DNA from: a virus
Virus record (IMG/VR): IMGVR_UViG_3300009147_000001
Coordinates: 46,164-110,163 of that record
Reading direction: 5' to 3' (one strand)
DNA: 64,000 nt
Part shown: positions 21,965 through 55,630 of the stretch, one piece after another
How positions within the stretch are numbered: the stretch's first letter is position 1
Layout: each line of letters starts with the position of its first letter
Program-made: the position numbers and the translations under genes
Notes under the pieces: model-generated
What the model was told of the DNA's origin: nothing
The model's input: only the letters and a program-made list of their open reading frames with translations
Databases searched by the model: none

Positions 21965-22210
21965 TCATTCAGGTCTAGCTCCTACTGATATTGACGAAAT
22001 CTGTCCGTGCACGCAGGCTTCCCACCGGTGATATCCACCCTCTGGATTATCAGATAATGTAAATACCGGGCGGATCTCTATGCTAGCCCACTCTTTGCCC
22101 GCAAAATCTCGGTCATAGGTCTGCACACACCACGCCAGGGCTTCGTCCAAACTAGTAAACCCACCACGCGCCACCGAGAGATTACGCTCCTCAGTAAAAT
22201 CGCTTATCAT
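21965..22210 (-). CDS. Hypothetical protein
   Basis: ATGA-coupled to portal stop. Confidence 0.5.
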   Translation of the reverse strand: MISDFTEERNLSVARGGFTSLDEALAWCVQTYDRDFAGKEWASIEIRPVFTLSDNPEGGYHRWEACVHGQISSISVGARPE

Positions 22211-24774
22211 CGTGTCCCACTCGTTCCTGATTTGTCCACACCGGTAGTTTGATTGCCCACCGATGGTACGGCAGGATTAGACTGCCGGGGCGGGCCGACC
22301 CGGGCCGGTTTTGGTGGCGCTACATCAGAACCGGTAGCCGTGCGCGCACCTTCATCAGATGTCATGGGCTGAGCCGCCTGCGGGCTCGCCGTGGTGAAGC
22401 GGCGAGTTTCATGCTCGGCGGGTGGCAGGTCCATTTCACGACGGAGGAAATCTTCTAGCCGCTCATCCGGAATAATCGAGTTAGCGCCAACAAAGTTACG
22501 GTAGGCAAACGACATAGTCCGCAGGTCTTCCCATTCACCTATCCGCCGAGCCCGCAACTTCGGATATTTGCCTCGGGCAAAGTTAAAATCTACCAACTGC
22601 TTTATCACATATTTGTTGAAGGTATCAGCCACAGTGTTGGCAATATATCGAGTAGACTTGAAGAACATGCTCATTGAATCTTCTTTAGCATTCGGATCAT
22701 TGGCAAACGGGGCGAGGATGTTTTCATAAATCTTCATGTCATGGTGAGCAATAGACGTCAAACAGTCTACCGGCTGACCTTCAAGTTTGGCGAATTCAAT
22801 AGTCCAACTCTCCGGGGCCACGATATGGGCACGTTCGTTGGTACGCAAATTTCGCCCTAAATCTTCAGCAATCGCCCGGTCGGCCTTGCTGAAACCCATG
22901 GGCAGCTTAATGATCGGTACACCAATACCGTGTCGTTCCTTTTGAATTGAATCTATCTTGTAAAATGTGTTTCCAGTAAAATATACCTTACCGTTTCTAC
23001 GAGCTAGCCACGTTCCGTTCTTCGTTTTTGGACACCAGACTATTCCAGTGTAAGTAGTGCGTTCTATCTTTGATCCATATCGCGATGCTGACTGTAGTGG
23101 TTTAGCACCGACACGTTCGCGAGAAATAAGCAATTGATGAACTATCGCATGTTGATAATCTGGATCTTGATGGTTCCAAGATTTATAATTTACTCCCCAA
23201 CCGAGTAACATGCAAGCTAATGCAATCGGTTCAAGTCTTGGCTTATCATTCTGTCGTATCTCACTATTTGTACATCCATCGCCTCTCAAACAGGTAGTAA
23301 CAAATAGTTCTAGTTGAGCCTTAGTCAAGGATAAGATAAAATTTGTAGTAACTACTTTATTCTTTCCTTTTACAAAATTACTCAATAATTTTGTTGCATT
23401 TGCATTTAAACGAAACTGGCATCCGTTTGGATCATGTTTTTTAGTATGTTCGTACCATCCTGCTGGCAACCTGCCGTGACCAACATTTGTCCGATCCGGC
23501 GCATATGCAGGACCAAATACACCAGTCAAACATGTCCTAATTCTGTCAAAGAATGGTTGGTCATAGTTTTGTGCAATTGCAGAACCATATCCTTGCCAAC
23601 CACCTTCTGTTATAAACCATCCTATTAGTTCTACCAAATCATCAGTATATTTTGGTTCAGTTGGTATATCAGCATTGACCGCGGCACGTGGAATAATATG
23701 ACGCTGACGCAAATTTTCTGTTGTGACAAACGTGTATGGAGCCTTCCAGGTTGTATCTTTTGTTAGCCAACGATGATCTGGCGTGGAAATTGAAGAGATT
23801 TGTTGAGATTCCATGTGTATTACATCGTGTGTACCAGGATAACGTCTAATATATTGAACTTCATTCCACTCAGACATACCAGTCTCTGGATTGATTGTTA
23901 ATACCATATCTCCTTGAATTAGCTGGTTGTGAAATAGCCACCCACGCTGGGTTAATATTTCTGTATCTTCGGACTTGCAGTCTTTATAAAAGTAGTGCTT
24001 GTAGGCCGATCGGAGCAGTGAAATACCTCGTAAGTCACCCGCTTCTTGTTCAAGCACGAACACTACGAGTTTGGCAATGGGAATTTCTAGTTGAATCCAA
24101 CCGGTTGCTTCAGTAGGCTCCATAATCAGAGTTTCTGGTCCACCATTTGCATCGTAAATCCACTCACGAATGTCCAATGGGTGACGTGGGGCAAGCTTCT
24201 TTATAACAATACGCCCATCGCTATCCTGCCCATAAACCTTTTCCATTGGAAGATAACCATACTCACACATGAGCAGGGCGTCTTCGACGATCCGACTCCA
24301 AGGCACGTTTAGATTATTGAAAAGATTGTCTTCCACAAAAGTGGCAATATTGTGGTCTAAGACCGAGTCAGAGGCTGGCTCCATAAACCAGCGCGCCGCC
24401 ATCACTGGCGTTTTGACATAACGCAAGGCCCCGCGAACCGTACCATCGGCCCGTTTCATTTCGTAGTAGGTGCGAATACCTTGCTTATCCCGCAGTTCCG
24501 GAATTTGTTCTTCTCTAGTCCAGGCAGTCCACGGAGACAAACTGGTATAGCCCATCTCTTTAAATGCCGTTGCCGTAGACATCTTGGGGTCGCGCTCGGC
24601 CATAATGATATATGAACCGTTGGCAGGATCGTGATTGGCCCCAACGAGTTCGTATTTGTCATCGAGGAGTACTTCGCGCAAATTGCGGGTACGCTCAGTC
24701 TGCACATCTTCGATGGCGCGGATGGCATCATCCTCGATGGTCACTGACTCCCCCTCATGACGAGTTGCCGCCAT
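22207..24774 (-). CDS. Portal protein (Mu gp29/DUF935-like), intein-containing
   Basis: GISLLRSAY, ERHGIGVP, QLVDFNF; intein inserted at YKD|TFY. Confidence 0.88.
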   Translation of the reverse strand: MAATRHEGESVTIEDDAIRAIEDVQTERTRNLREVLLDDKYELVGANHDPANGSYIIMAERDPKMSTATAFKEMGYTSLSPWTAWTREEQIPELRDKQGIRTYYEMKRADGTVRGALRYVKTPVMAARWFMEPASDSVLDHNIATFVEDNLFNNLNVPWSRIVEDALLMCEYGYLPMEKVYGQDSDGRIVIKKLAPRHPLDIREWIYDANGGPETLIMEPTEATGWIQLEIPIAKLVVFVLEQEAGDLRGISLLRSAYKHYFYKDCKSEDTEILTQRGWLFHNQLIQGDMVLTINPETGMSEWNEVQYIRRYPGTHDVIHMESQQISSISTPDHRWLTKDTTWKAPYTFVTTENLRQRHIIPRAAVNADIPTEPKYTDDLVELIGWFITEGGWQGYGSAIAQNYDQPFFDRIRTCLTGVFGPAYAPDRTNVGHGRLPAGWYEHTKKHDPNGCQFRLNANATKLLSNFVKGKNKVVTTNFILSLTKAQLELFVTTCLRGDGCTNSEIRQNDKPRLEPIALACMLLGWGVNYKSWNHQDPDYQHAIVHQLLISRERVGAKPLQSASRYGSKIERTTYTGIVWCPKTKNGTWLARRNGKVYFTGNTFYKIDSIQKERHGIGVPIIKLPMGFSKADRAIAEDLGRNLRTNERAHIVAPESWTIEFAKLEGQPVDCLTSIAHHDMKIYENILAPFANDPNAKEDSMSMFFKSTRYIANTVADTFNKYVIKQLVDFNFARGKYPKLRARRIGEWEDLRTMSFAYRNFVGANSIIPDERLEDFLRREMDLPPAEHETRRFTTASPQAAQPMTSDEGARTATGSDVAPPKPARVGPPRQSNPAVPSVGNQTTGVDKSGTSGTR
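22969..23979 (-). mobile_element. Intein with LAGLIDADG domain in portal (337 aa)
   Basis: CKSEDTEILT start, TPDHRW block B, GWFITEG, GDG, ends FTGN|T. Confidence 0.9.
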
Positions 24775-25785: not shown

Positions 25786-26985
25786 TCAGAAGTGCACATT
25801 CGTGGTAAAGTAACCCTTGTCAGTCAATGAAGTACCTAGCTCACCCGGGGTGTAAATGTCGGCCAAGCTCATAGTGCAGCCTAGCTTGAAAATATGCATT
25901 AACCCATACCGTAACGCGTCAATGGCATGATCTTCATATTTAATCGCGTCTTCCCGTGGGTTACGCGGTGTGCGACCAGACGGCGAATGGGCTCGATAGT
26001 TATTCATTTCGTGAATAAGCGCGCGACATGAGTGGTCAACATATAACCACGGTTCCTCCAGCGGAGTACCATACTCGTCGACCTCACCCACTTGCTGAGT
26101 GCGCAAAAATGTCTTCACCAAATCAATGCCCTCACGCCAGTTGGCTTTACTCTCTGGTCTAGCCACACATGGTGAAAATTTCTGCGATACAGTTGCTACC
26201 GCTTCTGGATCAGCAGCATCGCCAAAACACAGGTCTATTCGATAACCCTCTGGTTGGTCACGCGTGCGCAGTTCACCGAGAAAGTCATCGAGGCGCACCC
26301 CGGCTTTATAGTGTTCTCGCCAGACATGCACTCGATCCATCGGGTCAACCTGAAACTCCACGGCGGCCATGGGATTAACATAGCCCCAGTCAAAACAAAT
26401 GAAGTTCTTCCATGCCGGGTTATAGGTAATCTGTTTGACGTGAGTCTGTTCATCCCACTCGCTGAAAATCTTTCCCATAAACGAGGTAAAGTCAGCAGCA
26501 ATTTCCTGTTGAAACCACTCAAAGGGGAGTGTACGCTCTAGAAGGATAATCTCAGGATCATTACGACCACCTGGATAAACGACCGGATTCTCCCAGGATG
26601 GAAATCGCCACGACTCAAAGTCACTAAATGCTGGGTTTCGCCCGTATTGCCATAAATCGTGTAACCAGTTTTGTCCCTCTGGTGTAGAAGAAAACGTCGC
26701 CTGACCACGCTTGTCTGCTAAGGCCGGCTGAATGTATCGACTCCACGTTTCACGATTGTGCTTCGCTGCCTCGGACATTATCACATAGTCAAGTTTTTCC
26801 CCAACCAGATTGTCCGGGCGATCAGCGCTACGCACCTCAATAATAGTATTCCATGGAAACTGGATGAACATGTCACCAACACGTTTGTTGTAACTTTTCT
26901 TTACTTTCTTTTCTTGCCCTAACCGCAGACCAACTATCATATCCTGCCAAATAACTCTGAATTCCTTCTCACCAAGGTCAATCAT
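25786..26985 (-). CDS. Terminase large subunit, C-terminal part (Walker B + RNase H-like nuclease)
   Basis: DYVIMSEAA, STPEG, FDWGY, DHAIDALRY; the track's first 23 aa are an out-of-frame read of the intein end. Confidence 0.88.
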   Translation of the reverse strand: MIDLGEKEFRVIWQDMIVGLRLGQEKKVKKSYNKRVGDMFIQFPWNTIIEVRSADRPDNLVGEKLDYVIMSEAAKHNRETWSRYIQPALADKRGQATFSSTPEGQNWLHDLWQYGRNPAFSDFESWRFPSWENPVVYPGGRNDPEIILLERTLPFEWFQQEIAADFTSFMGKIFSEWDEQTHVKQITYNPAWKNFICFDWGYVNPMAAVEFQVDPMDRVHVWREHYKAGVRLDDFLGELRTRDQPEGYRIDLCFGDAADPEAVATVSQKFSPCVARPESKANWREGIDLVKTFLRTQQVGEVDEYGTPLEEPWLYVDHSCRALIHEMNNYRAHSPSGRTPRNPREDAIKYEDHAIDALRYGLMHIFKLGCTMSLADIYTPGELGTSLTDKGYFTTNVHF

Positions 26986-29311
26986 AGGTATTTCCGGTGT
27001 AATAGACAGAGCTGTTTCGCTTTGCCAACCAGTTACCATTTTTGGTAGTAACACACCATACTGTACCTATATATTGCTCACCCCCTATCTTGATGCCTCG
27101 GGGACCAGCAACATATTGCGCCCGCTGTGGATTAATAAATCGACTCGTCAGTAATCCCAAAACCCAACCGTTGTTGCCATCCTTTGTTCGTGGTCTTATA
27201 CTAGTAGCTATACCAATGAGTGAGCAGGCCAATTGAACGGCAAATAGCTGCTCCTTACTCTCCTGATATATGACTTTTTGACATGATTCATAGCCGTCTT
27301 TATACTGTTTTCCGACTGTTCCATCCCCTAGCATAGATATATCAACAAACAATTTTAATTGTGAAAATGTGAGATCCATAATGAACTGTGGATCAACTAT
27401 CTTGTGGTCTAGGAATACCTTCTTGAATTCTCTTCCCAAAACTTTTCCTATATTAAATCGTGTCATATTCGGACTTGTTGCATAAATGCGGTCAGACCAA
27501 TATTCAAACGCATGATAACTATCACCCAGGTGTGGGTTGGGACAGAGTTCAGTAAGTGCACGTCGTATTCGCGCTACATTATCAGGATTTGCCACATGAG
27601 ATTGATGAATGGTTAACCCATCACCTCTACTGCCATTCCTCGATCCTTCAGCCCACAGCCACGCGACTAGTTCCACGAAAGCATCTGTATACTTTGGCTC
27701 GGTGGGTACAGTTGCACATACCGCAGCCTTCGGAATGCGATCGTCGGCAGTTAATGTTGCTGTTGTCCGCCAGGTCCAACCATTATCAGTTTCTGGTAAT
27801 AAGTGCTCAATTGGTTTCAGCACCGATGGAAGTTTAGATCCATCCTTTTTATAGCCTATACCTGGCCTTCGCTGAGTTAACCAACGATGATCAGGAGTGG
27901 TAAGAGCAGAAAAAGAATGTCCTTCCATCCTAATAACATCATGCGTCCCTGGGTTTAGTAATACCTTCTCAACGGTATCCCACTCACTCAAACCAGTTAT
28001 TGGGTTAATCGAAAGCGTCTTGTCACCAACGACAACCTCATCATACCTTAACCAGCCACGCGCAGTGAGAATTTCAGTTTCTTCATCTACACAAGGCCCC
28101 ACTATCCAAACGTGTTTATTAGGAATCATGAGTATTGGTTCGACTTCGCGTGCTCCCATGAATGTATTGTGGGTAGCAATATAGGAGCCGCCAGCTAGGT
28201 ATAGATGAGATTTACTATCGACTGCAATACATTTCATCCAAACTGGTCTCGTTATGGGCGTGATGGATGTAATAAATCTAAAGTAATGCTTGCGTCTCGG
28301 TAGCGCACGCTGTGCAGCTAACTTCCTTGGTAAGCTGAATACGTCTATGATATTACCTGTGTGGATTCGATAACACAGCTTCTTCGGTACACCATAGAGC
28401 TTACCCACTCTCTGTGACCGCACCACTCGTCCGCCAAGTGAGCAGATAAGTGAGTCTACTGCATCCACGAGATTTTTGTTTGTACTATCAAAGTCCACAT
28501 GATTATTAGCCACTGAACCATCACTGTCCATGAGTCCATGTAGAAGGTCCATTCGCTGTTCCACAGAGCCGTACAAGTACGTTGTTGGTACATGCTTAGT
28601 ACCTAGTAATAGTTGCTCCCTTAATAAAACTCGTAGCCCATGGATTCTCCATGACGTACATCGATCCTTGTGCTCATGTCGCGTTACCTCCCACCCACGC
28701 GCGCTTATTTTGTCAATTATCCATGAATCAGAGTCCGGTATAGTAACGATACCATCGCTGCTACTACCATCGCCTAACCATACACCCAATACGTATGGGT
28801 CAATTGGAAGGTCCTTTTTCGCGTATTGTACTGGACCAGCCAATGTGATCGCATGATTTACCTCTGGCTTCTTTGATTTTGTATACAATGTTGAGGCAAT
28901 TTTATTAGTGGTACGGACCGCGGGTTTGGTCATACGACGAGAATCGGTTAGCGCCTTCCGCGCTGCTTTATCGTACGTTAACCATTCATGCTCACCATGA
29001 GCAACTAAGGTAGACCCGTCATCAAAAGTTACCAGAAAGGCATCAGTGCGAGCCTGTATATTGCTCGTACCTATAACGGTACATGGATGCCCGTGTTCGT
29101 CAAAGACAATATCACCATGCTCAAGTACTCCCATGGGCACCATGCCGTCAGGCGTGGGAATTGGCGTATTTACTTCTAAGAGTTTCCCGAACCGACGCCC
29201 ACAGACGGGAATCTTAAATCTGGCGGTACTGTCATGAAACAGTCGCTGCTTTTCATGTGGCACATAGCCAATAAGGTCAAAGTACTTTTCCTTGGAAATA
29301 GCTAACGACAC
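26978..29311 (-). CDS. Terminase large subunit, N-terminal part (Walker A) with two inteins
   Basis: PHEKQ, GRRFGK|T Walker A, WIVGP|TYD, then TGA. Confidence 0.88.
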   Translation of the reverse strand: MSLAISKEKYFDLIGYVPHEKQRLFHDSTARFKIPVCGRRFGKLLEVNTPIPTPDGMVPMGVLEHGDIVFDEHGHPCTVIGTSNIQARTDAFLVTFDDGSTLVAHGEHEWLTYDKAARKALTDSRRMTKPAVRTTNKIASTLYTKSKKPEVNHAITLAGPVQYAKKDLPIDPYVLGVWLGDGSSSDGIVTIPDSDSWIIDKISARGWEVTRHEHKDRCTSWRIHGLRVLLREQLLLGTKHVPTTYLYGSVEQRMDLLHGLMDSDGSVANNHVDFDSTNKNLVDAVDSLICSLGGRVVRSQRVGKLYGVPKKLCYRIHTGNIIDVFSLPRKLAAQRALPRRKHYFRFITSITPITRPVWMKCIAVDSKSHLYLAGGSYIATHNTFMGAREVEPILMIPNKHVWIVGPCVDEETEILTARGWLRYDEVVVGDKTLSINPITGLSEWDTVEKVLLNPGTHDVIRMEGHSFSALTTPDHRWLTQRRPGIGYKKDGSKLPSVLKPIEHLLPETDNGWTWRTTATLTADDRIPKAAVCATVPTEPKYTDAFVELVAWLWAEGSRNGSRGDGLTIHQSHVANPDNVARIRRALTELCPNPHLGDSYHAFEYWSDRIYATSPNMTRFNIGKVLGREFKKVFLDHKIVDPQFIMDLTFSQLKLFVDISMLGDGTVGKQYKDGYESCQKVIYQESKEQLFAVQLACSLIGIATSIRPRTKDGNNGWVLGLLTSRFINPQRAQYVAGPRGIKIGGEQYIGTVWCVTTKNGNWLAKRNSSVYYTGNTYD
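26990..28093 (-). mobile_element. Second TerL intein with LAGLIDADG domain (368 aa)
   Basis: CVDEETEILT start, TPDHRW, WLWAEG, LGDG, ends YTGN|T. Confidence 0.9.
28166..29182 (-). mobile_element. Class 3-type intein with LAGLIDADG domain in TerL Walker A (339 aa)
   Basis: No N-terminal Cys/Ser (LLEVNTPIPTPDG); W in block B (HEW), C in block F (MKCIAV), T in block G (ATHN|T); LGVWLGDG, GLMDSDG. Confidence 0.85.
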
Positions 29312-30951: not shown

Positions 30952-31344
30952 TTACTCGCTATTTGCGCGTAACTCGTTCGTTGCTTCGGTTAGCACTTGG
31001 TCATAGATTTCTTCCCAAGCACTACGGTGATCGCGGGCTTCTACTTTCTCAGCCGGACCCATGGTCCGGTCAATGACGTATTTACTAGCGTTGAGTCGAA
31101 TTCCTTCAATTTTAGAGCGAGTAGCTAAGTGACACATGGCCATGACTGCTAGCGGTAGGTTTTCTTCGAGTAGTCGTTTGGCGACGTCAAAGTTTTTGCC
31201 AATTCCTTCTAGCGCATATTCCATGTGGAGCTTGGATAGCGCCTCATCGGCATTCCAGGTATCTGAGATAAATCCCTCAAAACCTTCGAAGCTATCTCCT
31301 GCGGCCATGTTTGCCTCCTCATTGAGAGCAAGTGTAAGCGTCAT
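30952..31344 (-). CDS. Putative terminase small subunit
   Basis: First gene of the late operon; helical with IRLNASKYVIDRTMG motif; GAGGAGG RBS favours the MAAG start. Confidence 0.5.
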   Translation of the reverse strand: MTLTLALNEEANMAAGDSFEGFEGFISDTWNADEALSKLHMEYALEGIGKNFDVAKRLLEENLPLAVMAMCHLATRSKIEGIRLNASKYVIDRTMGPAEKVEARDHRSAWEEIYDQVLTEATNELRANSE

Positions 31345-32153
31345 TGACAGCTTTGTCTAGCATGTGCTATGGTCCGTTGTCAAAAAATTGACGAATTACA
31401 TAATAAAATATTGACGCTTTATTATATCTAGGCTATACCTCGATATCGCAGATATTATTTGAATTAGCTAACACGATAATTCAAACCGTCAAAATATTAT
31501 AATTCAATAACTCACCAAAAACAAGGAGGACCCTGCCGGAATGTCCTTTTTATACCGTTTTGTTATAATATAGTTATTTTGTTCACATTTAATAACATTA
31601 ATACCATTTCATACCCTTTTATGTGGTTTGTCCCATTTATACTATTATATCAGGATATCGAAATGCCTGAATTATCGTAAATTGGCGATTTATCCATTCA
31701 ATCGGGTAAATACGACATATACGATATGTCGCATTTGGCGATTTATAAGCATAAGGGGTGAATTACTAGCATAGTGGGTGAAATATCGGGACATTTCGGA
31801 CATATCGGGTCTACAGATGGCGCCATGTGGATCAAAAAAGTGTCCAAAATATCATAACTTGTTCTGAAATGTCCTATTTTGTCACCATTTTTATGCGTAT
31901 TTTAGCCCAGATTTTTGAGCCCATATATACTAGTAAATCCGGACATTTACGCATATAACCAACATTTGGGACTGTGCTATAGTGGTGATAGCGGGGGAAA
32001 AGGGACATAAGGTGGGAAACGGAACTTTCGGAAGTATCCGAAAAGCCGGGGAAATCCTACCAAATCGTACTTTGACAAGACAATAGAGGAAATGCAGGAT
32101 CTATCCGGATCTAAGGGGCTATGTCCAGACAAAAATGGACATAGGAGGACAAA

Positions 32154-32351
32154 GTGCCTCAAATCGGGATAAGTGACGGAAAACCCGTCATTTTCGCCCA
32201 TGTCGGCGATATCGTATATAGCCCGAAAAACCACCCTTTCGAGGGAAGAATCACCTATGTCGGCAAATACGGAGTCAAAGTACGATGGATAGTACCTAAC
32301 GGACAAAACTGGACAGAGTGGGTGTTAAAGGACACTCTGGGCATAAGCTGA
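32154..32351 (+). CDS. Hypothetical early protein
   Basis: AGGAGG RBS. Confidence 0.7.
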   Translation: MPQIGISDGKPVIFAHVGDIVYSPKNHPFEGRITYVGKYGVKVRWIVPNGQNWTEWVLKDTLGIS

Positions 32352-32454
32352 CACAAGCGGACATAGCCTCCTAAATCCGGATAGATCTGGACATGCTCTC
32401 CTATATCCACCTATGTCCGGACAGGGTAGGGAAAAACGGACATAGGAGCACAAA

Positions 32455-32694
32455 ATGCTAGAAATCAGAGTAAACCCGGACAAGACGGTGCAGATCCCTC
32501 TGATCGGGACATTCTTCACGTACCAGGGCGAATCGTACGTAGTGCTCCGAACCACCACATACCAGGAGCAAGGCGACGATACGCTCATTCCGGTCTTTAC
32601 GACCATAGCTCTCATTCTTCGCGTAAACGACGAAGGCGACGATCTGGGCGAAGAGACCAAAGAGGTCAACGCGGACGAACTGACTGAAATCTAG
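32455..32694 (+). CDS. Hypothetical early protein
   Basis: AGGAG RBS. Confidence 0.7.
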   Translation: MLEIRVNPDKTVQIPLIGTFFTYQGESYVVLRTTTYQEQGDDTLIPVFTTIALILRVNDEGDDLGEETKEVNADELTEI

Positions 32695-32799
32695 AAAAAA
32701 CCGGATATAGGTGGATATAAGAGAGCATGTCCTCGCACATTAGGTTCTATCCGGATCTATGGTGCTATGTCTGGACAGAAACGGACATAGGAGACAAAG

Positions 32800-32982
32800 A
32801 TGGGCATAGCAGCAGCAATCCTGAAAATCGTGTTGATGGCGGTCGTTTCCATCCAAAACGCGACAATCTCGGACATGCAGGACAAGTCGGAGCATTTCCC
32901 GGTATGTCACAGCATAAGGGAAGATGAACCACCTTATGACTGCGATTACGTCCATCACGCATGGATACCCCGTAACCGGTAA
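32800..32982 (+). CDS. Hypothetical early protein
   Basis: AGGAG RBS. Confidence 0.65.
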   Translation: MGIAAAILKIVLMAVVSIQNATISDMQDKSEHFPVCHSIREDEPPYDCDYVHHAWIPRNR

Positions 32983-33084
32983 ATAACGGACATTCCAGAC
33001 GTAGCATCATAAATCCGGATAGAACAGGACTAAGTCGGGTTTAGGGTCCATGTGCCGTAAAAACGGACACAGAGGACAAAAACC

Positions 33085-33678
33085 ATGAAATGGTTGAAAG
33101 TAGTCGCATTCGCCATAGTTGCCGCAGTCGCGGCATACAAGTCATTCTGGCACATGTACGACCAAATCACCGTAAAGACCGCAGAATCTGACCCAATGGG
33201 CATATCGCCCTATATCCTCCCAATCTCCGTAGATGGGTTGTTAGTGGTCGCAGCGATCGAAATCCGGACAGCCAGGACATTAGGGCGATCTTGGGTTAAA
33301 CTCCGCAAAAACCTCGTAGCGTACATAGGGTGCGGAACCGGACTTCTCATGTCAGGGTGGGCAAACTGGAACTCAGTGGACAAATACACCCTGATCGCTG
33401 TAATATGGGCCATATGGCCCGTATTTGCCCTTTTCGCCTCACTTGAGGCCATTCTGGGCACAGTGCTACAAAAGCCGCGATCCAAGGCAAAGGCCGTGGT
33501 AGAACCAAAAACGGACACAACCGCCCAAAAGCCGAAGAAGTGGGCAGATCTGACGGAAGCGGAAAAGAAGGCAATCCGGTCAGAGCGGTCAAAGCGGGCA
33601 GCACTGACAAACCGGAGGAAAAAGGCCATAGCGGCCGAAGACGCCGCAATCGCCCAAGCAGAGCAAATCCTAGCGTAA
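33085..33678 (+). CDS. DUF2637-like membrane protein
   Basis: SFWH, LPISVDGL, SGWAN, WP motifs; ~4 TM helices, basic tail. Confidence 0.75.
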   Translation: MKWLKVVAFAIVAAVAAYKSFWHMYDQITVKTAESDPMGISPYILPISVDGLLVVAAIEIRTARTLGRSWVKLRKNLVAYIGCGTGLLMSGWANWNSVDKYTLIAVIWAIWPVFALFASLEAILGTVLQKPRSKAKAVVEPKTDTTAQKPKKWADLTEAEKKAIRSERSKRAALTNRRKKAIAAEDAAIAQAEQILA

Positions 33679-34103
33679 CAGCCAAAAGCGGCACATGGGC
33701 TCCAATCCCGACTTAGTCAGACATACTCTCCTATATCCTGCCATGCCCGGACAAAACGGACATTAGGCACTTAATAGGCGGTTCACACTTTGTCACCATA
33801 AGGTTCACTGTCAGGTTTCCGACAGATCAACATCCCTTTTGGGGTCTTGTGCTCAGAAATATCGTACATGTCTAGATTTAACCGCATATATCAGGGCAAG
33901 TTTTGGCATGATATAAGCGAAGAATCGGACATATCACGAAAACCCGGGCGGAGTAGACTGGAGGAAACAGGTGGGAACGGAAGCATCCGGCAAATCCGGA
34001 CAGCCCGGGGAAACCCTCCAAAATCGGACATTGACACCTAAACAGTGACAGACGAGGGCTTACCCGGCCCTATCCTCTCATGTCTGGGCGGAAACGGACA
34101 GAA

Positions 34104-34346
34104 ATGGACATTTACCACATTCACCCATACATGGTACGACCCGTCCGAAGCTGCACCAAAGCAGACATCCAGCGCCAAATGGACAGACTTCGCAGCGAGG
34201 GACAGATCGAACCTATCGTGGTAAAACCGCCGAAAATGGGACAATACGAGCCAGATCGGGAGCATCCCGACTACTGGTACTACTCACCCGAAATGGTCGA
34301 AGCGGCCATAAGGCTCGGATGGGATGAAATACTCGTAACCTACTAA
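34104..34346 (+). CDS. Hypothetical early protein
   Basis: ATG after AAACGGACAGAA, inside inverted-repeat pair 5. Confidence 0.6.
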   Translation: MDIYHIHPYMVRPVRSCTKADIQRQMDRLRSEGQIEPIVVKPPKMGQYEPDREHPDYWYYSPEMVEAAIRLGWDEILVTY

Positions 34347-34466
34347 TCTAGTAGATGTCTAGACATGAGGGGTTAAGACCGGGTAAGCCCTAGGTTGTAC
34401 GGATTTGTAGCGGTATGTCCAAGAATCCCCAAGATCAACAGCTAGAAACGGATAAAGGGGACAAAA

Positions 34467-34691
34467 ATGGACAATCAAGGCAAGCTCAGCAAAGTACACA
34501 ACATGCTCGAAAAGGGACAGATCAGCCTAATCGACGCACAGGTGTACATTGACGACATCTCCCGCGAAACCAGCGCATTGTGGGGCCAGTACCCCAAAAC
34601 CCTCCAGAGCTGCCCATTGTGCACCATCGGGATGGTCCGGATGATCGTGTACTTTCTGCGCATTCGCGACGGTTCGGTCGTAGCTGACTAA
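34467..34691 (+). CDS. Hypothetical early protein
   Basis: AAGGGG RBS, inside inverted-repeat pair 6. Confidence 0.6.
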   Translation: MDNQGKLSKVHNMLEKGQISLIDAQVYIDDISRETSALWGQYPKTLQSCPLCTIGMVRMIVYFLRIRDGSVVAD

Positions 34692-35285
34692 CACCAGCAA
34701 AAAGGACATACCGCTACATGTCCGTACAAAAGGAGGGAAGATGGCCGTAAAATGGCCAAAACGGATATTCCCCTGGGAAGAGCCCATGTCGGACTACGCA
34801 CGCAGAGCGCGCATGGCCGACAAAACGGACAAGGAGCCCAAAATCCACGTATCGGTGCACATCAGGGTAACTGCCACCGAACGGGCATTACGGTTCGATT
34901 TCAGCAAACCGGACCAAACGGAGCTGTGGGGCTTCTAGGAAGGAACGGACAATGTTGACACTTAGGGCACACTGGCGCAAAGCGCGCTGGGCCTGGACAA
35001 GCCGGCGAAACGGACAGTACCGGTTCAAGGTACATTCCGTCTAGAACGGAGAAAACGGACATGTCAGACAAAGACCTCGAATACCTCAACTGGCTCGAAA
35101 CCGTCCTGTGGGACGAAACGGAGAAATCGTACATCTCCGACTTCCTGCGCTTTATGGCTGCATTCGACCATTACGTCGGAAGGTACCGCAAAAACGGCTA
35201 ATCGGACAGTTTACATCATACGCACCATATGGTGCGTATGGTGTAACCTGCCCGAGAGCAGGCAAAACGGACAAAGGAGCAAACA

Positions 35286-35576
35286 GTGAATAACTGGGCA
35301 TCCGGGATCTACTACCCAGATACGAAAAGCACGAACGAATTCGTGTCCAACACGACATTTGGGCATGCACTACGCACCATGCTCAAAGAGGCCCAAGAGC
35401 GGACAAACGACGCTTACGACAACAACGACCACGAAACTGGCAAAATGTACGAAGTGCTCGTTGCAGACATTCGCGACATCGCCGACGACGAGGGCATCAT
35501 GGACGATCCGGACATGTGGGAGGAACAGACCTTTTACCTCGATGACGACACCGAGTGGTACATCGGACAATACTGA
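35286..35576 (+). CDS. Acidic hypothetical protein
   Basis: AAGGAG RBS. Confidence 0.65.
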   Translation: MNNWASGIYYPDTKSTNEFVSNTTFGHALRTMLKEAQERTNDAYDNNDHETGKMYEVLVADIRDIADDEGIMDDPDMWEEQTFYLDDDTEWYIGQY

Positions 35577-35653
35577 CATCTAGGTCGTTCTCATCATAGG
35601 TGACTTTCTGGTCACCTATGGCGAAATCCACCTAGACAGGAGGAAAACGGACA

Positions 35654-35887
35654 ATGGACCCAACCCAGACATTGCGGGACATGCTCAACCTTATCCAGCA
35701 AATCGGACAACTCGCCACATTGGAGGGTCATCTACGCAATCTGGACGAATTGAGCGAAAAGACCGCAGACCTGCGCGAATGGCTCCTCAATGGAGGATAC
35801 GCCCCAGATCTACTATTCTTCCACACAGCGGACGAACTCCCGCAGTTCGCCCAAATCGACACGAGACTGGAGAATGAAGACGTCTAG
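35654..35887 (+). CDS. Hypothetical protein (MDP..L..WL..GG family)
   Basis: AGGAGG RBS. Confidence 0.65.
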   Translation: MDPTQTLRDMLNLIQQIGQLATLEGHLRNLDELSEKTADLREWLLNGGYAPDLLFFHTADELPQFAQIDTRLENEDV

Positions 35888-35971
35888 GTCGTTCTAGTCC
35901 AAGATGGGCATTGCGCCCATCTCGGGCTAAATCCACCTAGACGTGGAGAAACCAACACAAAAGGACATGAA

Positions 35972-36172
35972 ATGGACATCCAGGACATCATCGACAATCC
36001 CGTCTTCATGGACAAAGCGGCGCAAAACCTCATGATTCTGCGCATCCTGCGCAAGCTGGGCGTAGACCTCAATGAGGTCTTGCCGGACCTTCCGGACGGA
36101 GTGAGCATCGACGACATTCACGCCCTTCTGGACGATCTGGACGAATTCCTCCTGACGGGCGTATCCGTCTGA
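35972..36172 (+). CDS. Acidic hypothetical protein
   Basis: AAAGGA RBS. Confidence 0.6.
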   Translation: MDIQDIIDNPVFMDKAAQNLMILRILRKLGVDLNEVLPDLPDGVSIDDIHALLDDLDEFLLTGVSV

Positions 36173-37120
36173 AATCGGACAGGATCGGACGAATGAAGGT
36201 AAATCGGACAAAAGGCGGATGGCTGGTCATAGGCACCAGAAAGGAACTACACGACCTTACCATACCGTACATCATCAAACCGGACACATGCATCAAAAAC
36301 CGGTAAATCGGACATCTCGGGTCATTCTGGGGCAAAAGCCCCAGAGTGGTCAAATATGCCCGAAACGGACATATCAGACAATCAGAACGTATAGGGGCAT
36401 ACCGGGCATATGGGTCAAAATGGACATAGCGCTCCCTGAATAATCATGGGAGAAATCCTGGCAATTGGGCCTAATTGCGTCCAATTGGCCAAACCACGTC
36501 CAAACGGACAAAAGAGGGTAAAAATGAGCAATGAGGGTACAATTGACGACCAGGGTAAATCCCACATCTGGGTCGTTCAGGGCTATTACCAACCATACGG
36601 GTGGGAAGACCTCACCGCGGAGGAAACCTACCCAGAAGCCCTGAAACGGAAGAAAGAGTTCATAGACAATGAAGGTGGTAAGTACCGCATCAAAGTCTAC
36701 ATAGACCCAGAAACCAACACCGATTGCTGAACCGGACAGATCGCATCAATCACGGCATAAGCCGTGATCGGTGCCATCGAGCCCGAATCGAACAGAAATG
36801 GACATCATGTCACTAAAGGTAGGAACCATCATCACTCGGTACCATCCACTCCTAAGAGAACTAACGTGTGAAGATGGAGTATGTGTGGGCAAGATACTAC
36901 GAACGTTCACATACGCCAACTATCATCACGTAGAAGTCACATGGTGGGAAACCTGCTCATATCACAACTACGACACATCAACAAACACATATCTCTTCCT
37001 CCACGACGAGATATGGGAAATCGGACAAATCCCGGAAATCTCCTGAACCGGACAGATCGCATCATTCTTGGCACTGTGCCAAGAATGGTGCAATGTGCCT
37101 GACACAGAGGAGAAACGGAC

Positions 37121-37798
37121 ATGACGAACAAGGTAGACACACTACGCCACTCCGACTTTACGGTCGAATGGATCGACCCGAATGATATCTCCACCATTCG
37201 GGACAGAGGCTACGTAAATCCCTATCAACTGGACAAAATCCCACATAAGGGGGCAATCCCGTTCGTTGATCTCGGATCGGTTGCAGCCGGCGAAGACACC
37301 GCAAACCAGACATCCACCGTCAACCGGTCCAATTACCGAAGACTACGCGAAGACTACCCAACCGTGTTCATCAACGTCAGCTATTACAACGTGGACACAT
37401 TGGGTGCGATCGTGCCAGATCTCCCCGATGAGGTCATCAACCTCCTTATCGGATTAAAAGAGGACTATCCGCTCTACGACGAGGAAGACCTCTGCAATCT
37501 GGAGGATGAGGAAATAACGGACTCCTGGGACCAATGGGTTCGATCCGACGTTTCCTCCATCATCATCGAAAAGCTCTCTTACGCCGAGGATGAGGACACC
37601 CTCGACACATGGTACAAAATGGACAAAGAGCACGAAGCAGAGCTTTTCTGGCGATGTGTGGAGGATCTGGACAGATACCCCGAACACAGCGGTATTGAGG
37701 TCATCTGGAACGATCTGGACAAAATCGCCGAAAGGATGATCCGCTACCTTTCCGGGGAAATTACGCCAGTTCCGGACGATCAAGCACCTTTGTTCTGA
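37121..37798 (+). CDS. Acidic hypothetical protein
   Basis: GAGGAG RBS; L.EDYPLYDEED motif. Confidence 0.75.
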   Translation: MTNKVDTLRHSDFTVEWIDPNDISTIRDRGYVNPYQLDKIPHKGAIPFVDLGSVAAGEDTANQTSTVNRSNYRRLREDYPTVFINVSYYNVDTLGAIVPDLPDEVINLLIGLKEDYPLYDEEDLCNLEDEEITDSWDQWVRSDVSSIIIEKLSYAEDEDTLDTWYKMDKEHEAELFWRCVEDLDRYPEHSGIEVIWNDLDKIAERMIRYLSGEITPVPDDQAPLF

Positions 37799-38675
37799 TT
37801 TGGTGCGAAGCGTATCATAAGATACGCTTCGAGCCATGTCAGCGCAAGGAGGGAACAACGGACAATCATGACACTTAAGACAATAAGAACAACAGTAGAC
37901 AAAATAGCTGGAATGTACACGTATCAGCTCAGAATCGTCGAAAACGGACTAGAAACGGACAAAGTAGTCATTATCCGGGCTACTAACCCACTATACCTCG
38001 AAAAGGATACGTGGGTGGAAATAGACTTTCCCGACGATTAGAACATTATGGTCATAGTTCGCAGACCATGCGAACTATGGCCATCCTATTCTCATCTGCC
38101 AGACCAAGAAAAACAAAGATCATTATGTTGTCAAGATCTTGACACACTGGTAGGCTGACAGCACACGGGGACATCGGGATCACGATACTACGGGCCAAAA
38201 CCCCGAAAGTCATGATGCCCATTGAATCGGACCTATAGTGCATAGACTGCGCTATCCGCTTGAAAAAACCATAGTGACTTTTCTGCCACGGGCAGGCTGA
38301 CGCACCCGCGTCACCCTAGCCCGTTGGGCTCCCAGTGACCAGCGTATACGCCCTGTATGGGCCGCTAGCACACGATCCCGCCACGGTGGTACCCCGAGGT
38401 ATCAACCGTCACGGATCATGGCGCAGCGTGGCGCTCAGCGCGTTTTCCCTGGTCACTGACCTATGGTCGGGTAGGAACAAAAGCGCAAAAACGCGATGAC
38501 AGGATAAATCGGACACTTCGTTCATTATCCTCATATCATCCTGAGTAGCGTAATAACGTCCTATCCGTGCCATAGGCCACGAAAGGAGCCGACTGCTCGT
38601 GAGGTTCTGCTCAGAAACGTGCTAGCAGTCACGTTTCTGGTCAAAGTCTCATGAAACGGACACAAGGAGACAAAA

Positions 38676-39767
38676 ATGGACAAAGACCAACCTATCATCA
38701 TCGTTGGGGGATCTCTGACCGGACCGGTTATGTCACTCTTATTGATGAATGCCGGATTTAGCAACGTTCACCTCTATGAGGCAATTCCACCCAATATTTC
38801 CCCATCAGGTGGAGTAATCGGACTTGACCACTACGCCCTGGACGTACTGGAAAGTGTCGGAATCATCCAGAACGAGATCATTCCGTTCACGTCTGAGCGC
38901 GTCATTGCTATCAAACTACGCTCGGGCACCGAAAACCAGACATTCTACCCAGGACGCAACACCACGTGGTCAATTCTGCACACTGCACTCATGCGCCGAA
39001 TGCCGGACAATCACTACCACCCGGGCAAGAAGGTTACGAGTGTGAATACTGGATACATCGGATTTTCGGATGGTAGCACGACAGAAAGTGCATTCACCAT
39101 CTTTGCCGATGGACGCCGCTCTACTGGACGAAAGCTGCTCGACCCAACCCGAAAGCTCCATTACGCCGGATATGTAGCGCACCGAGGCATTCTCGACCGG
39201 TGTCCTCCTGACATTCGCGACTTCCTGCGCTTTGAAGGGCAAGACACCGCATTTAACGTCTTTCCCATCATTCAGGATAACGGGGCAATCGGCATGGACT
39301 GGACATTCTACCTCAACACGTCAGAACCGGATTTTCGCCAGCATTTCGGTGCATCACCGGTCGTAAAGACCTTCATGCACCAAATCCCTTCTGATGTAAC
39401 TACCGTGGTCGATTGTGCCGCTACTCGCACACTCACGGAGCAAACCGCACATCTTGTGCACTCAACTGCAACGCGGATGGCGGTGCCCATCGTGGACATC
39501 GACCAGCCAACTACCATGATCTTCAACAACGGGTCAAGCGTGCTCATTGGTGACGCACTGGCCCCGGTTCGCCCACATACCGCTAGGGGCGCCAATAATG
39601 GGATAATAGCCGCCCAGTCGCTCATGGTAGCTTTGCGCCATCATGTCAACCATGGAGCAAATCTCCTTTCCGCCCTAAAAGGTTGGGAGTCACGGCTTTT
39701 GCCTACTATCCACCAAGATGTAGCCAATGGGCCTATTATGGGCGCTAAGCTCGGATTGGGAGGCTAG
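38676..39767 (+). CDS. FAD-dependent monooxygenase (2,6-dihydroxypyridine hydroxylase-like)
   Basis: IVGGSLTG, FADGRRS, YAGYVAHRG, LIGDA..RPHTARG fingerprints. Confidence 0.85.
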   Translation: MDKDQPIIIVGGSLTGPVMSLLLMNAGFSNVHLYEAIPPNISPSGGVIGLDHYALDVLESVGIIQNEIIPFTSERVIAIKLRSGTENQTFYPGRNTTWSILHTALMRRMPDNHYHPGKKVTSVNTGYIGFSDGSTTESAFTIFADGRRSTGRKLLDPTRKLHYAGYVAHRGILDRCPPDIRDFLRFEGQDTAFNVFPIIQDNGAIGMDWTFYLNTSEPDFRQHFGASPVVKTFMHQIPSDVTTVVDCAATRTLTEQTAHLVHSTATRMAVPIVDIDQPTTMIFNNGSSVLIGDALAPVRPHTARGANNGIIAAQSLMVALRHHVNHGANLLSALKGWESRLLPTIHQDVANGPIMGAKLGLGG

Positions 39768-40007
39768 ATGACCAAAGCCAAAGACCTGGAACCAGGAGAT
39801 CAGATAAAGCTAGAAATAGACGGTGTGGTTAACACAGAACGCCCAGACGGGTCAACCTGGACATATCTCTATTTCACCACCACCACTGACACACTGTACA
39901 TACCGAGCGATAGCGACATATCTACCGAGTCATGACGCTCTAGTGCAAAGCGTACTATACGGTACGCTTTGTGCTATACCGCCATGAAACGGACAAAGGA
40001 TCACAAA

Positions 40008-40346
40008 ATGTCACACTTCCACGTAGGCCATAACATGCCGGGCTATCTGCCCGAAAGCGACATCATGTGTTTCGATAATGCAGAAGACGCAATTCGAGCC
40101 CTAGGGGATGAACTGGACAAAGCTATCGACACCCTCTTCGAATTCAACAATTCTGCTCTCAAGGACACACTCTACGCAATAGTAGAAATCTACCAGGATG
40201 GAACATCCCCGGAGTTCTGCGACGTTACATACGAACTGCATGAAGGTCGCAGCGTCCGACACAGAGTCGACGGGTATGAATACTGGATCGAACCGGTCAA
40301 TCACGCCTATGACGTCTGTGAATGTCGAGAACCGTACCTAGAGTGA
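40008..40346 (+). CDS. Hypothetical protein
   Basis: HVGHNMPGYLPES; AAAGGA RBS. Confidence 0.6.
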   Translation: MSHFHVGHNMPGYLPESDIMCFDNAEDAIRALGDELDKAIDTLFEFNNSALKDTLYAIVEIYQDGTSPEFCDVTYELHEGRSVRHRVDGYEYWIEPVNHAYDVCECREPYLE

Positions 40347-41149
40347 GGTTCTAGTCATATCCGACTAACCTAGTCGGATGTGGCTAAATCCCTATGAAAG
40401 GATGAAAAAATGGCACTATGGAATGCAACCGTGGCAGTTGCCATTATCAAGGCACGCCGCCGAGGAGACAACGAATTCGCCCAATTCCTCAAAACCCTTC
40501 TCTTCTAGACCTACGGAACAGAAATGGACGAACCATACGACAACGGTGATCCGGTTACATTCTGCACGGAATGCAATCATGCCGACATCAAACACACATC
40601 GTTTGAACCAGACGAATGGGACGAATGGGCCAATGTACTTAAATGCCAGGAATGCGGACAATTGTGCTGGAATGCCCAATTCGTCACCCTGGAGTACCTG
40701 ATCTGATCGAGGAGGAACGAGACAATTCAACAGAATAGGATAATCCGTGCGTAAATTACTCAAATCAGACCTAACCGTCACAAATCCACCACAACCTCGC
40801 CAACCATCACCATACCGAGAAGCATGGACAATTGACTTCCATGACCGCACATCGGTCATTGTCTTCACATATGACACCATGGTAGCAATTGTCAGAAAGA
40901 CGATAGATCACGTCCCATTGCACCATGGTAATACCAAAAAGGTGCATTATCAACTCATAAAGTGGATGGATGACGATAAAGGGTACGAAATTCTTAGCTC
41001 GGTAGAAATGGACATAAAACTCATCTAGACAGTTATGGTGTGGATCGGACAAAACATAACATATAACAATCATACCCCGATTCACGCCATATCTACCTAG
41101 ACCGGGTAGATAACCAGAAAACCAACACACAGAAGGATACATCACCACA

Positions 41150-41536
41150 ATGGATCTCAGTGCCTATATGTACGACAGTGACGGATTCAACGCCAATGGT
41201 CGCGACAAGTACGGCTATAACCGCAACGGTTATGACCGGGAGGGTCTCAACCGTGACGGTCTGACCAGCGATGGTTTCAGCGCCCAAGGATGGAACGCCG
41301 AAGGACGCGACAAGCGCGGCTTTGACGCCAATGGTCGCGATGTGAACGGTTTCGACCGGTATGGCTGGGACAAGGATGGTTTCAACCGTGATGGCCTCAA
41401 CGCTGACGGCTATGACCGCGATGGCTTCAGTAAGGGTGGATTCAACCGGTATGGCTACAACCGCGACGGCAAGACGCGCCAGCAGGTCTACATCTACAAC
41501 GAAAAGGGTGAAATCCGCCCGGACCTGACCGCCTGA
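41150..41536 (+). CDS. GF/YNRDG pentapeptide-repeat protein
   Basis: ~20 imperfect (G)(F/Y/L/W)(N/D)x(D/N/Y) repeats. Confidence 0.8.
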   Translation: MDLSAYMYDSDGFNANGRDKYGYNRNGYDREGLNRDGLTSDGFSAQGWNAEGRDKRGFDANGRDVNGFDRYGWDKDGFNRDGLNADGYDRDGFSKGGFNRYGYNRDGKTRQQVYIYNEKGEIRPDLTA

Positions 41537-41601
41537 CCGTTTTCGTCATAGACGGCACAGCCGTGTCGTCTATGGCGAAATCGACCAGGAAAGGACAAAT
41601 C

Positions 41602-41925
41602 ATGACCACCTACGGCAAAGCACGTGAAGAGACCATCAACGCTCTCATTGAACGAAAGCCGTTCATGAGATCAGGCTTCGGCATGAAAGCCTTCAACCGG
41701 GCAACGGAACTAAGAGGTCGACTTCCCGAAAAATGGGTCAATGAGTACGCAATAGACGAACTCGAAGGAATAGTCTATACCGTCGTTTCCTACATGACTC
41801 CCATTGCTTGGGTAAAAAGGGACGGAACCGTTGTCATTCCTGACATATACTATTCCCCCACCACATCAGCCCATCAGGGACTATGCCGGACATACCTTAC
41901 CTCCGGTAAAGGATATAACACCTGA
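41602..41925 (+). CDS. Hypothetical phage protein
   Basis: YTVVSYMTPIAW...YSPTTSAHQ; AAAGGA RBS. Confidence 0.7.
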   Translation: MTTYGKAREETINALIERKPFMRSGFGMKAFNRATELRGRLPEKWVNEYAIDELEGIVYTVVSYMTPIAWVKRDGTVVIPDIYYSPTTSAHQGLCRTYLTSGKGYNT

Positions 41926-42060
41926 ACCGGACAAAAGGATGAACAATGATATACTTCCGACGACGCAAGCCAAACAGTCATAGGTGGGACTTCTAGGTTC
42001 GTTTAGTGCAATTGGTCCCATGCGGACCAATTGTGCTATGCAAACCGAGAAAGGACAATA

Positions 42061-42405
42061 ATGGACAAAACACTCGAAAAGGCTAGAGCGCATAATAACA
42101 TGCCATTCGTCATCTATTTGATGAACGCCGTGATGCGCACACCAACGTACCAATCCAATCAAAGCACCTATGCCTTCTGGTTGTGGTACCAAGCGATTAG
42201 ATGGGACTATCGGGACAAAGATCCTGATCCTATCAGCATAAAACGGATTTATCACAAAGACCTGATCGGATGGGACGTCAACGGCAGAGACTGCGAGGTG
42301 TGCCATATGCACCCGCATAGTCACGACTGGATGGACCTGGACATTAACGGCTTTGCCGTCAATTGCTCCAATATCGACAGAACATCACCAGTGAGCACGA
42401 TATGA
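42061..42405 (+). CDS. Hypothetical protein
   Basis: AAAGGA RBS after hairpin. Confidence 0.55.
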   Translation: MDKTLEKARAHNNMPFVIYLMNAVMRTPTYQSNQSTYAFWLWYQAIRWDYRDKDPDPISIKRIYHKDLIGWDVNGRDCEVCHMHPHSHDWMDLDINGFAVNCSNIDRTSPVSTI

Positions 42406-42871
42406 GCAAAGAGACACACATCAACAGCATTCTCGCCACAATGCGTGAAATTCACGCACTCAGCACAACGGACGTTCATGCCTACCTCAAGCGCCAGCGG
42501 GAATTTCTGGAGCTATGGGAAGAACTGGACAAATTCCTACAATCAGGCGGCTTCTGGCCAAACATGACTATCGTGCGAAACGGATGGTTTCTAGAGAAAT
42601 GAGCACATATCACATACGATATAACAATGGGTCTCCGGCAGACAATCTATCCCGAGCGCAGCTCGAAGGAGCCATAGCGTCCTGGTTGACGAAAAATCCG
42701 TCCACATCCGACGATAGTAGCATCCATACCGTCTACATCACGGTCAACGACCGAATGGTACCTATGCGCATGCATACGTACGGTCATGACAATGGGACAT
42801 TCACTGTACTATTGTCACTCGCCGGAGTTACCATCGAAAAGTTCACCATAACCGTACAATAACTCCATAAC

Positions 42872-42914
42872 GGACATAGCAGGCATAGCAGACATAGCAG
42901 ACATAGCAGACATA
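42872..42914. repeat. 9-bp tandem repeat (G[A/G]CATAGCA, ~4.5 copies)
   Basis: Seen directly. Confidence 0.8.
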
Positions 42915-44391: not shown

Positions 44392-44420
44392 TTGACACAA
44401 TAGTTGTTTTCTGCTAGGCT
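44392..44420 (+). promoter_or_regulatory. Principal-sigma promoter, probably leaderless mRNA
   Basis: TTGACA-N17-TAGGCT; ATG of 44427 starts 7 nt after the -10 and there is no RBS. Confidence 0.7.
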
Positions 44421-44426
44421 CAACGG

Positions 44427-45323: not shown

Positions 45324-45465
45324 GCTATCCAACCCAGCACAGCAGAAAAAATCTTGAAAAATGCTGCACCAGTGGGACTAGCAGGCCCTACGGGTGTGTT
45401 ATAGTAGGTGTACCGGCAACACCGCCGTACACCAAGGTTTCCAAACCGAAAGGGACACACCGACC

Positions 45466-55424: not shown

Positions 55425-55630
55425 CATACTTTATCATGATCCTGTCACCAACCGAACGTGGCCCAACCCACCCATACACGATCATGATAAAGTATGATAA
55501 TAATTACGCCAAAGACCAATCAGTAAACTATGTCATGCACGTGTAATTATTATCATACTTTATCATGATCACATCATCTGCGGAGCGTAAACCAAAACCA
55601 TTCCATGCGATCATGATAAAGTATGATAAT
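55425..55630. repeat. Four 17-bp cores (CATACTTTATCATGATC) in alternating orientation
   Basis: 55425-55441 fwd, 55480-55496 rev, 55554-55570 fwd, 55609-55625 rev. Confidence 0.92.

Follow-up and report, generated by a model that had tools for sequence, protein, structure and literature searches.

Six bracketed genes at the start of the early region

The stretch of DNA analyzed here, 64,000 nucleotides (nt) long and hereafter called the window, comprises positions 46164-110163 of the complete 110,163-bp IMG/VR virus record IMGVR_UViG_3300009147_000001, which has direct terminal repeats and derives from a rhizosphere metagenome assembly. Within it, we investigated an array of six consecutive plus-strand open reading frames (ORFs) at 32098-34729, each of which lies inside its own inverted repeat. 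Structural genes, namely those for the portal, the terminase, and the tape-measure protein, occupy the minus strand up to ~31.3 kb of the window, and a run of small genes occupies the plus strand from ~32 kb; the array therefore stands at the start of the divergent early region. An initial annotation, made from the sequence alone, had proposed that each of the six ORFs lies together with its ribosome-binding site (RBS) in a private inverted repeat, that the arms of neighboring repeats nearly abut, and that an orphan left arm near 33720 resembles arm 2. These proposals were borne out. A repeat finder recovered all six arm pairs (26-38 nt, with arms 82-94% complementary), each pair encloses exactly one plus-strand ORF plus its Shine-Dalgarno (SD) sequence, and adjacent arms either abut (32387/32389 and 33025/33028) or overlap (34398/34395).

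The first cassette has its left arm at 32098-32126 and its right arm at 32359-32387, and encloses a 65-aa ORF with a GTG start (32154-32351). At the center of its stem, a CTAA in the left arm (32111-32114) faces a CTAA in the right arm (32371-32374), which gives the series C·A, U-A, A-U, and A·C, with the mismatches C32111·A32374 and A32114·C32371; we refer to these four columns as the central block. The minimum free energy (MFE) structure computed with RNAfold contains 27 of the 29 pairs of this stem (z -5.5). Cassette 2 (arms 32389-32420 and 32701-32732; ORF 32455-32694, 79 aa) has a single C·A at 32401/32720, and 31 of its 32 pairs are present in the MFE structure (z -8.2); its ORF has a homolog, 45% identical, in a cassette of a related phage locus (L032) whose arms are unrelated. 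Cassette 3 (arms 32744-32775 and 32994-33025; ORF 32800-32982, 60 aa) has a C·A at 32757/33012 and a z of -7.3, and its arms are paralogous to those of cassette 1. The largest ORF, which encodes a membrane protein of 197 aa (33085-33678), resides in cassette 4 (arms 33028-33057 and 33689-33718), where the block at 33040-33043/33703-33706 reads U·U, 2 bp, A·C (z -7.3).

The orphan left arm follows at 33720-33750 on the plus strand. It is like arm 2, being 77% complementary to 32701-32731 of that pair's right arm, and is followed by the start motif AAACGGACA; as it has neither an ORF nor a right arm, we therefore regard it as the remnant of a truncated cassette. Cassette 5 has arms at 34055-34085 (up to 34048-34090) and 34361-34391 (up to 34356-34398), an ORF of 80 aa counted from the motif-proximal ATG (34104-34346), and a block at 34070-34073/34373-34376 with an extra C·A at 34068 (z -8.5). 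The last stem of the array is that of cassette 6 (arms 34395-34420 and 34704-34729; ORF 34467-34691, 74 aa; z -7.3), in which U·G plus U·U at 34404-34405 replaces the C·A block. A C·A beside UA/UA, which the initial annotation had described as shared by four pairs, is thus found as such in pair 1, as variants in pairs 2-5, and as a clade-wide motif in the relatives described below, but not in pair 6.

All six stems are included in the MFE structure with high pair probabilities and z values of -5.5 to -8.5, and the block is predicted to be open or weakly paired. When the whole 110-kb genome was searched for inverted repeats with arms of 26 nt or more, a complementarity of 84% or higher, and a distance of 150-700 nt, seven were returned, all within the array stretch; the seventh matches an arm of cassette 1 with a paralogous arm of cassette 3. 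The same search returned none in any of 20 genome sequences shuffled block-wise by dinucleotides. A G·U-tolerant search of 34730-47000 revealed no weaker stems downstream. Comparison of the six ORFs with PHROGs and Pfam gave nothing significant, with only a borderline DUF2637 for ORF 4 and a sub-threshold ParB_N for ORF 5, and blastn of the array region against a phage collection gave no match.

Stems in related phages have a fixed anatomy, covary, and are strand-specific

Through the portal protein we found 27 related IMG/VR loci, and every one of them that reaches far enough upstream of the portal has the array in the same place. Arrays of 2-11 stems are present in L027 (11 stems), L028, L032, L033, L034 (identical to L016), L036, L031, L026, and L039. 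In L039, six abutting gene-bracketing stems of 27-39 nt have arms without the GGACAT or CTAA of the other relatives. Together with the six stems of the window, these loci gave a pooled set of 59 stems, from which three repeat-rich promoter-region hits (L028 5721, L028 5799, and L031 17003) had been dropped.

Read on the sense strand, the pooled stems follow one plan, comprising (i) an outer helix, mostly of 12-13 bp, (ii) the four-column central block, and (iii) an inner helix, mostly of 13-14 bp, which often ends in ATGTCCG on the left and begins with CGGACAT on the right. In the block, both arms read 5'-CNNA-3', so that each C lies opposite the A of the partner arm and two Watson-Crick pairs are flanked by C·A and A·C. 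This exact block occurs in 25 of the 59 stems, and 57 have at least one block-edge mismatch; among the 118 block edges, 69 are C·A and 16 are U·U. The middle dinucleotide varies with compensation (CTAA/CTAA, CTTA/CAAA, CCTA/CAGA, CTCA/CGAA, and CTGA/CCAA), and it is therefore the geometry that is conserved, not the sequence CTAA. The median distance is 25 nt from the left arm to the start codon and 11 nt from the stop codon to the right arm, with a median ORF of 80 aa between them; the next left arm follows after a median of 2 nt, with no duplication, and a right arm and the left arm after it are not mutually complementary.

The 5' part of the loop carries a conserved start-associated motif, (A)AAACGGACA(T)AGGAG. 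We also observed this motif directly before start codons at 32134-43551 of the window, for example at 32435, 32780, 33062, 34093, 35054, 35266, 35646, and 37114. The string AACGGACA, which is common to the relatives, occurs 26 times on the plus strand of the 110-kb genome and once on the minus strand, nearly always in the early region. The motif is comparable to the SAS/ESAS elements of Cluster K mycobacteriophages (PMC3203893) in being a strand-specific conserved sequence that overlaps the RBS of a subset of genes; the likeness lies in placement, not in sequence. The ESAS inverted repeats, in contrast to the stems described here, are local (4-13-bp spacer), conserved in sequence, and do not bracket genes.

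For a transition in one arm of a perfect repeat, G·T and A·C are equally expected outcomes. Read on the sense strand and without the block, the 59 stems contain 1513 Watson-Crick pairs and 24 mismatches of other kinds besides 74 G·U and 7 C·A, and the excess of G·U over C·A (binomial p = 3e-15) means that the sense strand, in single-stranded form, has been selected to pair. The C·A pairs of the block are a specifically retained exception to this wobble rule. Within a stem, the two arms pair at 98.5% of positions, versus 52% for arms taken from different stems, and nearly every column contains 4-6 pair types. In four orthologous stem pairs of L034 and L036 (a fifth, which was mis-anchored, was excluded), we counted five two-sided changes from one Watson-Crick pair to another, seven changes between Watson-Crick and G·U, and about two disruptive changes. 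These compensatory changes concern the relatives' stems and not the six of the window, because no closer relatives of the window's cassettes turned up: the 197-aa ORF had one hit, at 25% identity, in viral contigs and none in metagenome contigs. The view of the initial annotation that the stems are structures of the plus strand is thus upheld by the 74:7 ratio of G·U to C·A, by the compensatory changes between orthologs, and by a plan that is kept in eight relatives with unrelated arms.

The folding molecule is most likely mRNA of the sense strand, and we infer RNA rather than single-stranded DNA. The distances from stem to start and stop codons would fit the cover of an initiating and a terminating ribosome, which is to be expected of an RNA element and not of a purely DNA element.

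The initial annotation had also suggested that the genes are modular cassettes, and a comparison of cassette content among the relatives agrees with this, as genes and half-stems alike have been reshuffled. Between relatives, an ORF family is not tied to particular arms, and the order of cassettes is permuted. An ORF shared by L027 and L033, with 82.5% amino acid identity (87% mean column identity over the aligned cassettes), lies between unrelated arms; homology begins at the ATGTCC end of the left arm, halts just past the stop codon, and resumes at CGGACAT. The inner half ACGCATAT is joined to three outer halves and to three genes, all different, and the outer half ATATACCCGTT to two distinct inner halves. 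Counted over the whole set, 46 pairs of stems have the inner half alone in common, 24 the outer half alone, and 9 both. Every stem is nevertheless still paired, and exchanges must therefore replace both arms symmetrically. Two routes would lead to this: double recombination at the short conserved motifs, after which selection retains intact stems, or an event on the folded structure. The T4-type PeSL cassettes (PMC2839356 and PMC4122927) similarly combine short conserved motifs between small, nonessential early genes with modular shuffling; a PeSL, however, consists of a promoter and a local, sequence-conserved terminator stem-loop, with no pairing across genes.

Possible control region and neighboring genes

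A conserved, putative leader or promoter module lies 15-45 nt before the first stem of each sub-array on the plus strand and also precedes the first cassettes in the relatives. In the window, one copy (32010-32090) stands before cassette 1 and comprises a hairpin (32025-32044) and the series CAAATCG-N3-CTTTGACAA-N2-CAATAG; a second copy (33945-34045), which aligns with the first, stands before cassette 5. Twenty nt before arm 1 is a boxA-like CUUUGACAA, and before arm 5 a CAUUGACA. The boxA consensus is UGCUCUUUAACA in Escherichia coli and AUGAUCUUUGAAA in Bacillus subtilis (PMC13753749). At the same site, the relatives have CTTATCAAC, CTTTTCAAC, CATTGATAA, and CTTAATAAC; the core is therefore too variable for the site of one host factor, and we regard an rrn-type boxA as an unsupported reading of the module.

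Between the divergent late and early genes, ~700 nt (31400-32090) are without long ORFs and contain many GGACAT and ATGTCC strings in both orientations; this may be the early control region. A sigma-70 promoter scan gave nothing above the shuffle expectation, and the only strong sigma-70-like matches are at 31344-31404, just upstream of this region at its left edge. Directly 3' of the ORF at 35061-35201 lies a 54-nt near-palindrome (35202-35255), with 30-nt arms that are 90% complementary. Another set of repeats, in the tRNA region at 55480-55638, consists of three alternately inverted copies of an AT-rich 28-34-nt unit (GATCATGATAAAGTATGATAATAATTAC) with ~35 nt between them.

On the minus strand, the portal and terminase genes span 22207-24774 and 26978-29311, respectively. 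The portal is of the Mu/P23-45 type, with 855 aa versus ~500 aa matched in relatives, and its residues 239-604 match a hypothetical protein of a Mycobacterium phage, which suggests, from sequence comparison, that this segment is an intein or other insert; the terminase contains a LAGLIDADG intein. The genome also encodes Ro60 (TROVE plus vWA), RlaP, an Rv2179c-like exoribonuclease, PolA, an SNF2 helicase, and a PD-(D/E)XK nuclease. The Ro60 (G000:C1:6002-8071; L053) is full-length, and its closest genome matches, in a Chloroflexota metagenome-assembled genome and in Deinococcus, are at 40-43% identity, which is not informative about the host. Together, Ro60, RlaP, and the Rv2179c-like 3'-5' exoribonuclease make an RNA-metabolism set that is unusually large for a phage.

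Proposed processing by RNase III and alternative readings

The reading that we favor, and to which we assign about an even chance, is that host RNase III cuts the stems at the central block, as it does stems of rRNA operons or of phage T7, and that end-clamped monocistronic mRNAs result. In the first (immediate-early) polycistronic transcript, paired arms would then form long-range RNA helices, and each of these would close a single cistron and its RBS into a loop of its own. The dyad-symmetric distortion of the block (C·A, 2 bp, A·C), set between two halves of about one turn each, could position a dimeric double-strand-specific endonuclease, most likely host RNase III, for two cuts 2 bp apart. 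Such cuts would free monocistronic mRNAs with 5' and 3' ends clamped by the 13-14-bp inner helix and, as a by-product, small junction fragments of two outer half-arms. The clamped ends would be shielded from exonucleases, with a probable stabilizing effect, and the fate of each gene would be uncoupled from that of its neighbors.

Since two helices of about one turn with mismatches 2 bp apart fit an RNase III dimer, cutting by the host enzyme at the block is the variant we prefer. Consistent with what an RNase III substrate requires, the sequences that flank each product are predicted in the MFE structure to form a helix of at least about two turns (26-38 bp) in all six cassettes. B. subtilis RNase III is known to cut long-range intramolecular mRNA duplexes that span hundreds of nt, with cuts 2 bp apart (PMC11780869). 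The T7 early RNase III signals, when folded here, gave two ~10-bp stems around an internal loop.

Among known systems, the leader-trailer helices of bacterial 16S and 23S rRNA (rrn) are alike in that (i) sequences flanking the product pair over hundreds of nt, (ii) the products stand in tandem in one transcript, and (iii) the helix is the site of the double cut that frees the product, as proposed here. They differ in that each product here is a small cistron that encodes a protein, with six to eleven of them in tandem and their stems abutting, and in that the stems here have a fixed C·A/2 bp/A·C block and shuffled half-stem modules; moreover, the boxA-like CUUUGACAA is not conserved in the relatives. 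The T7 early mRNA signals (R0.3-R1.3) likewise lie between small genes of a phage early operon and have two stems of about one turn with an internal loop between them, and their cleavage is said, after Dunn and Studier, to yield stabilized monocistronic mRNAs. Unlike our stems, however, they are local ~60-nt intergenic hairpins with a conserved sequence and an asymmetric loop, whereas here a whole cistron closes the "upper stem", and each stem has arm sequences of its own and a symmetric distortion. The long-range mRNA duplexes known as RNase III targets also pair over hundreds of nt, including 5' with 3' untranslated regions (UTRs), and are also cut with a 2-bp spacing; those, in contrast, are single gene-specific cases, mostly in decay or translation repression, and not arrays with a shared structural motif. 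A full-text literature search aimed at this layout yielded no account of phage operons in which stems bracket the cistrons one by one. The layout thus probably represents an undescribed way to cut and clamp single messages from a long early transcript; new here are the C·A/2 bp/A·C block in its fixed form, a wobble statistic that singles out one strand, and the mosaicism of half-stems.

Several observations weigh against RNase III processing. In E. coli and B. subtilis, the positions flanking RNase III cuts are usually paired (PMC11780869); a conserved C·A at the presumed cut positions is therefore atypical and could even block cleavage, and the C·A pairs of the block may mark a binding-only site or the site of another enzyme. 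A search for RNA runs that contain this stretch returned none. A TTGACA 20 nt upstream of arm 1, if it were a -35 box, would leave part of the first left arm untranscribed. An RNase III domain (Ribonucleas_3_3) and a double-stranded RNA (dsRNA)-binding domain (dsrm) were not found in the phage genome, and the enzyme would thus be that of the host; the same RNase III search had a match in 9 of 14 control genomes, 8 of them bacteria. RNase III is present in most bacteria. Further, folded single-stranded DNA of the same strand would tolerate G·T wobbles as well. A T7-type RNA polymerase had no match in the genome, a blank that is uninformative because the control likewise had none.

A possible, less probable alternative is that the same RNA helices remain uncut and act as insulators or clamps, with each cistron forming a domain of its own; RNase III or another dsRNA-binding protein could bind them without cutting, and they could also hold back 3' exonucleases and Rho or delay translation until the whole cistron has been transcribed. 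The structural evidence (stems, anatomy, covariation, and RNAfold predictions) applies to it alike, and mismatches at the would-be scissile positions, atypical as they are for RNase III sites (PMC11780869), are in its favor. Uncut helices, however, have no need of a C·A pair that is fixed in position and orientation exactly 2 bp from its counterpart. The inner part of the left arm can pair instead with the GGACAT of the 5'UTR. In the nascent RNA, the SD-AUG region has a predicted accessibility of 0.46, slightly below the 0.55 of the full cassette, which also speaks for uncut helices; this difference is small, and a nascent-RNA switch, in which the left arm first pairs with the 5'UTR GGACAT, was rejected for that reason.

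We consider it unlikely that the arms are DNA-level cassette boundaries, at which the sense strand would fold as single-stranded DNA and structure-specific recombination or copy-choice would swap "heads", each an inner helix with its gene, at the block. The outcome would be an integron-like cassette system without a classical integrase, and much of the mosaicism is in keeping with it, namely genes, inner halves, and outer halves in different combinations across phages (46 inner only, 24 outer only, and 9 both), the ORF of L027 and L033 (87% identical in nucleotides) in unrelated arms with breakpoints at ATGTCC and CGGACAT, the permuted cassette order, and the orphan arm at 33720; among DNA mismatches, moreover, G·T is the one tolerated best. 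Ordinary recombination at short conserved motifs, with intact stems then favored by selection, accounts for the mosaicism just as well, however, and the spacing of start and stop codons matches ribosome footprints. Integron cassettes share with the array small promoterless ORFs downstream of a common promoter, shuffling between relatives, boundaries conserved in structure (fixed unpaired bases) rather than in sequence, and strand-specific folding. An attC site, in contrast, is a local 57-141-nt hairpin at the 3' end of a cassette, whereas the arms here are 180-630 nt apart around the ORF and form no local hairpin. Integrons also need the tyrosine recombinase IntI, and a six-frame search of the complete genome for tyrosine and serine recombinases (Phage_integrase and Resolvase) gave no match; nor was a transposase found there. 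Terminal inverted repeats of a transposon or miniature inverted-repeat transposable element (MITE) were likewise rejected, given the private arms (52% cross-stem pairing), the 2-nt median gap without duplication, and the absence of a transposase among the Pfam hits of 53 ORFs. DNA inversion or excision, which the initial annotation had named as an outcome to look for, left no rearranged joints in the contigs of two runs from two separate studies and samples, which is weak evidence since contigs drop rare variants.

In a related proposal, which we hold to be equally doubtful, the stems would serve as "sockets": the inner helix and its gene would be exchanged between outer helices, guided by structure at the C·A block, via a folded single-stranded DNA or RNA intermediate, such that one element is both an RNA processing signal and a recombination site.

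The initial annotation had further suggested that the excised cistrons might be ligated to circles, in parallel with the permuted tRNAs; such circular mRNAs would recall the archaeal pre-rRNA and permuted-tRNA pathways. The geometry, with the inner helix holding 5' and 3' ends together, speaks for this, and yet we regard it as very improbable. RtcB had no match in the complete genome, and no RNA ligase was found among the 53 ORFs scanned against Pfam; besides, RNase III ends (5'-P/3'-OH with a 2-nt overhang) are not substrates of RtcB. An archaeal-type bulge-helix-bulge site, which needs two 3-nt bulges 4 bp apart as well as an RtcB-type ligase, was also rejected, as the block has no bulges and its mismatches are 2 bp apart. 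Finally, chance or a metagenome misassembly is already refuted by the absence of any such repeat from the 20 shuffles, by the occurrence of the stretch in contigs of the two separate studies, and by the recurrence of the layout in contigs from at least eight other metagenomes.

If the stems are "sockets", they would constitute an integrase-free gene-cassette system for phage early (probably anti-host) genes. If RNase III processing is correct, these phages would apply the logic of rRNA operons, in which each product has its own long-range helix, to arrays of small early proteins, and the series C·A, 2 bp, A·C would be a specific and easily mutated structural signal that can be tested directly with RNase III. 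Cutting at such stems would further provide a natural, compact insulator for synthetic operons, and it would explain how fast-evolving early genes are swapped between phages without loss of their expression signals.

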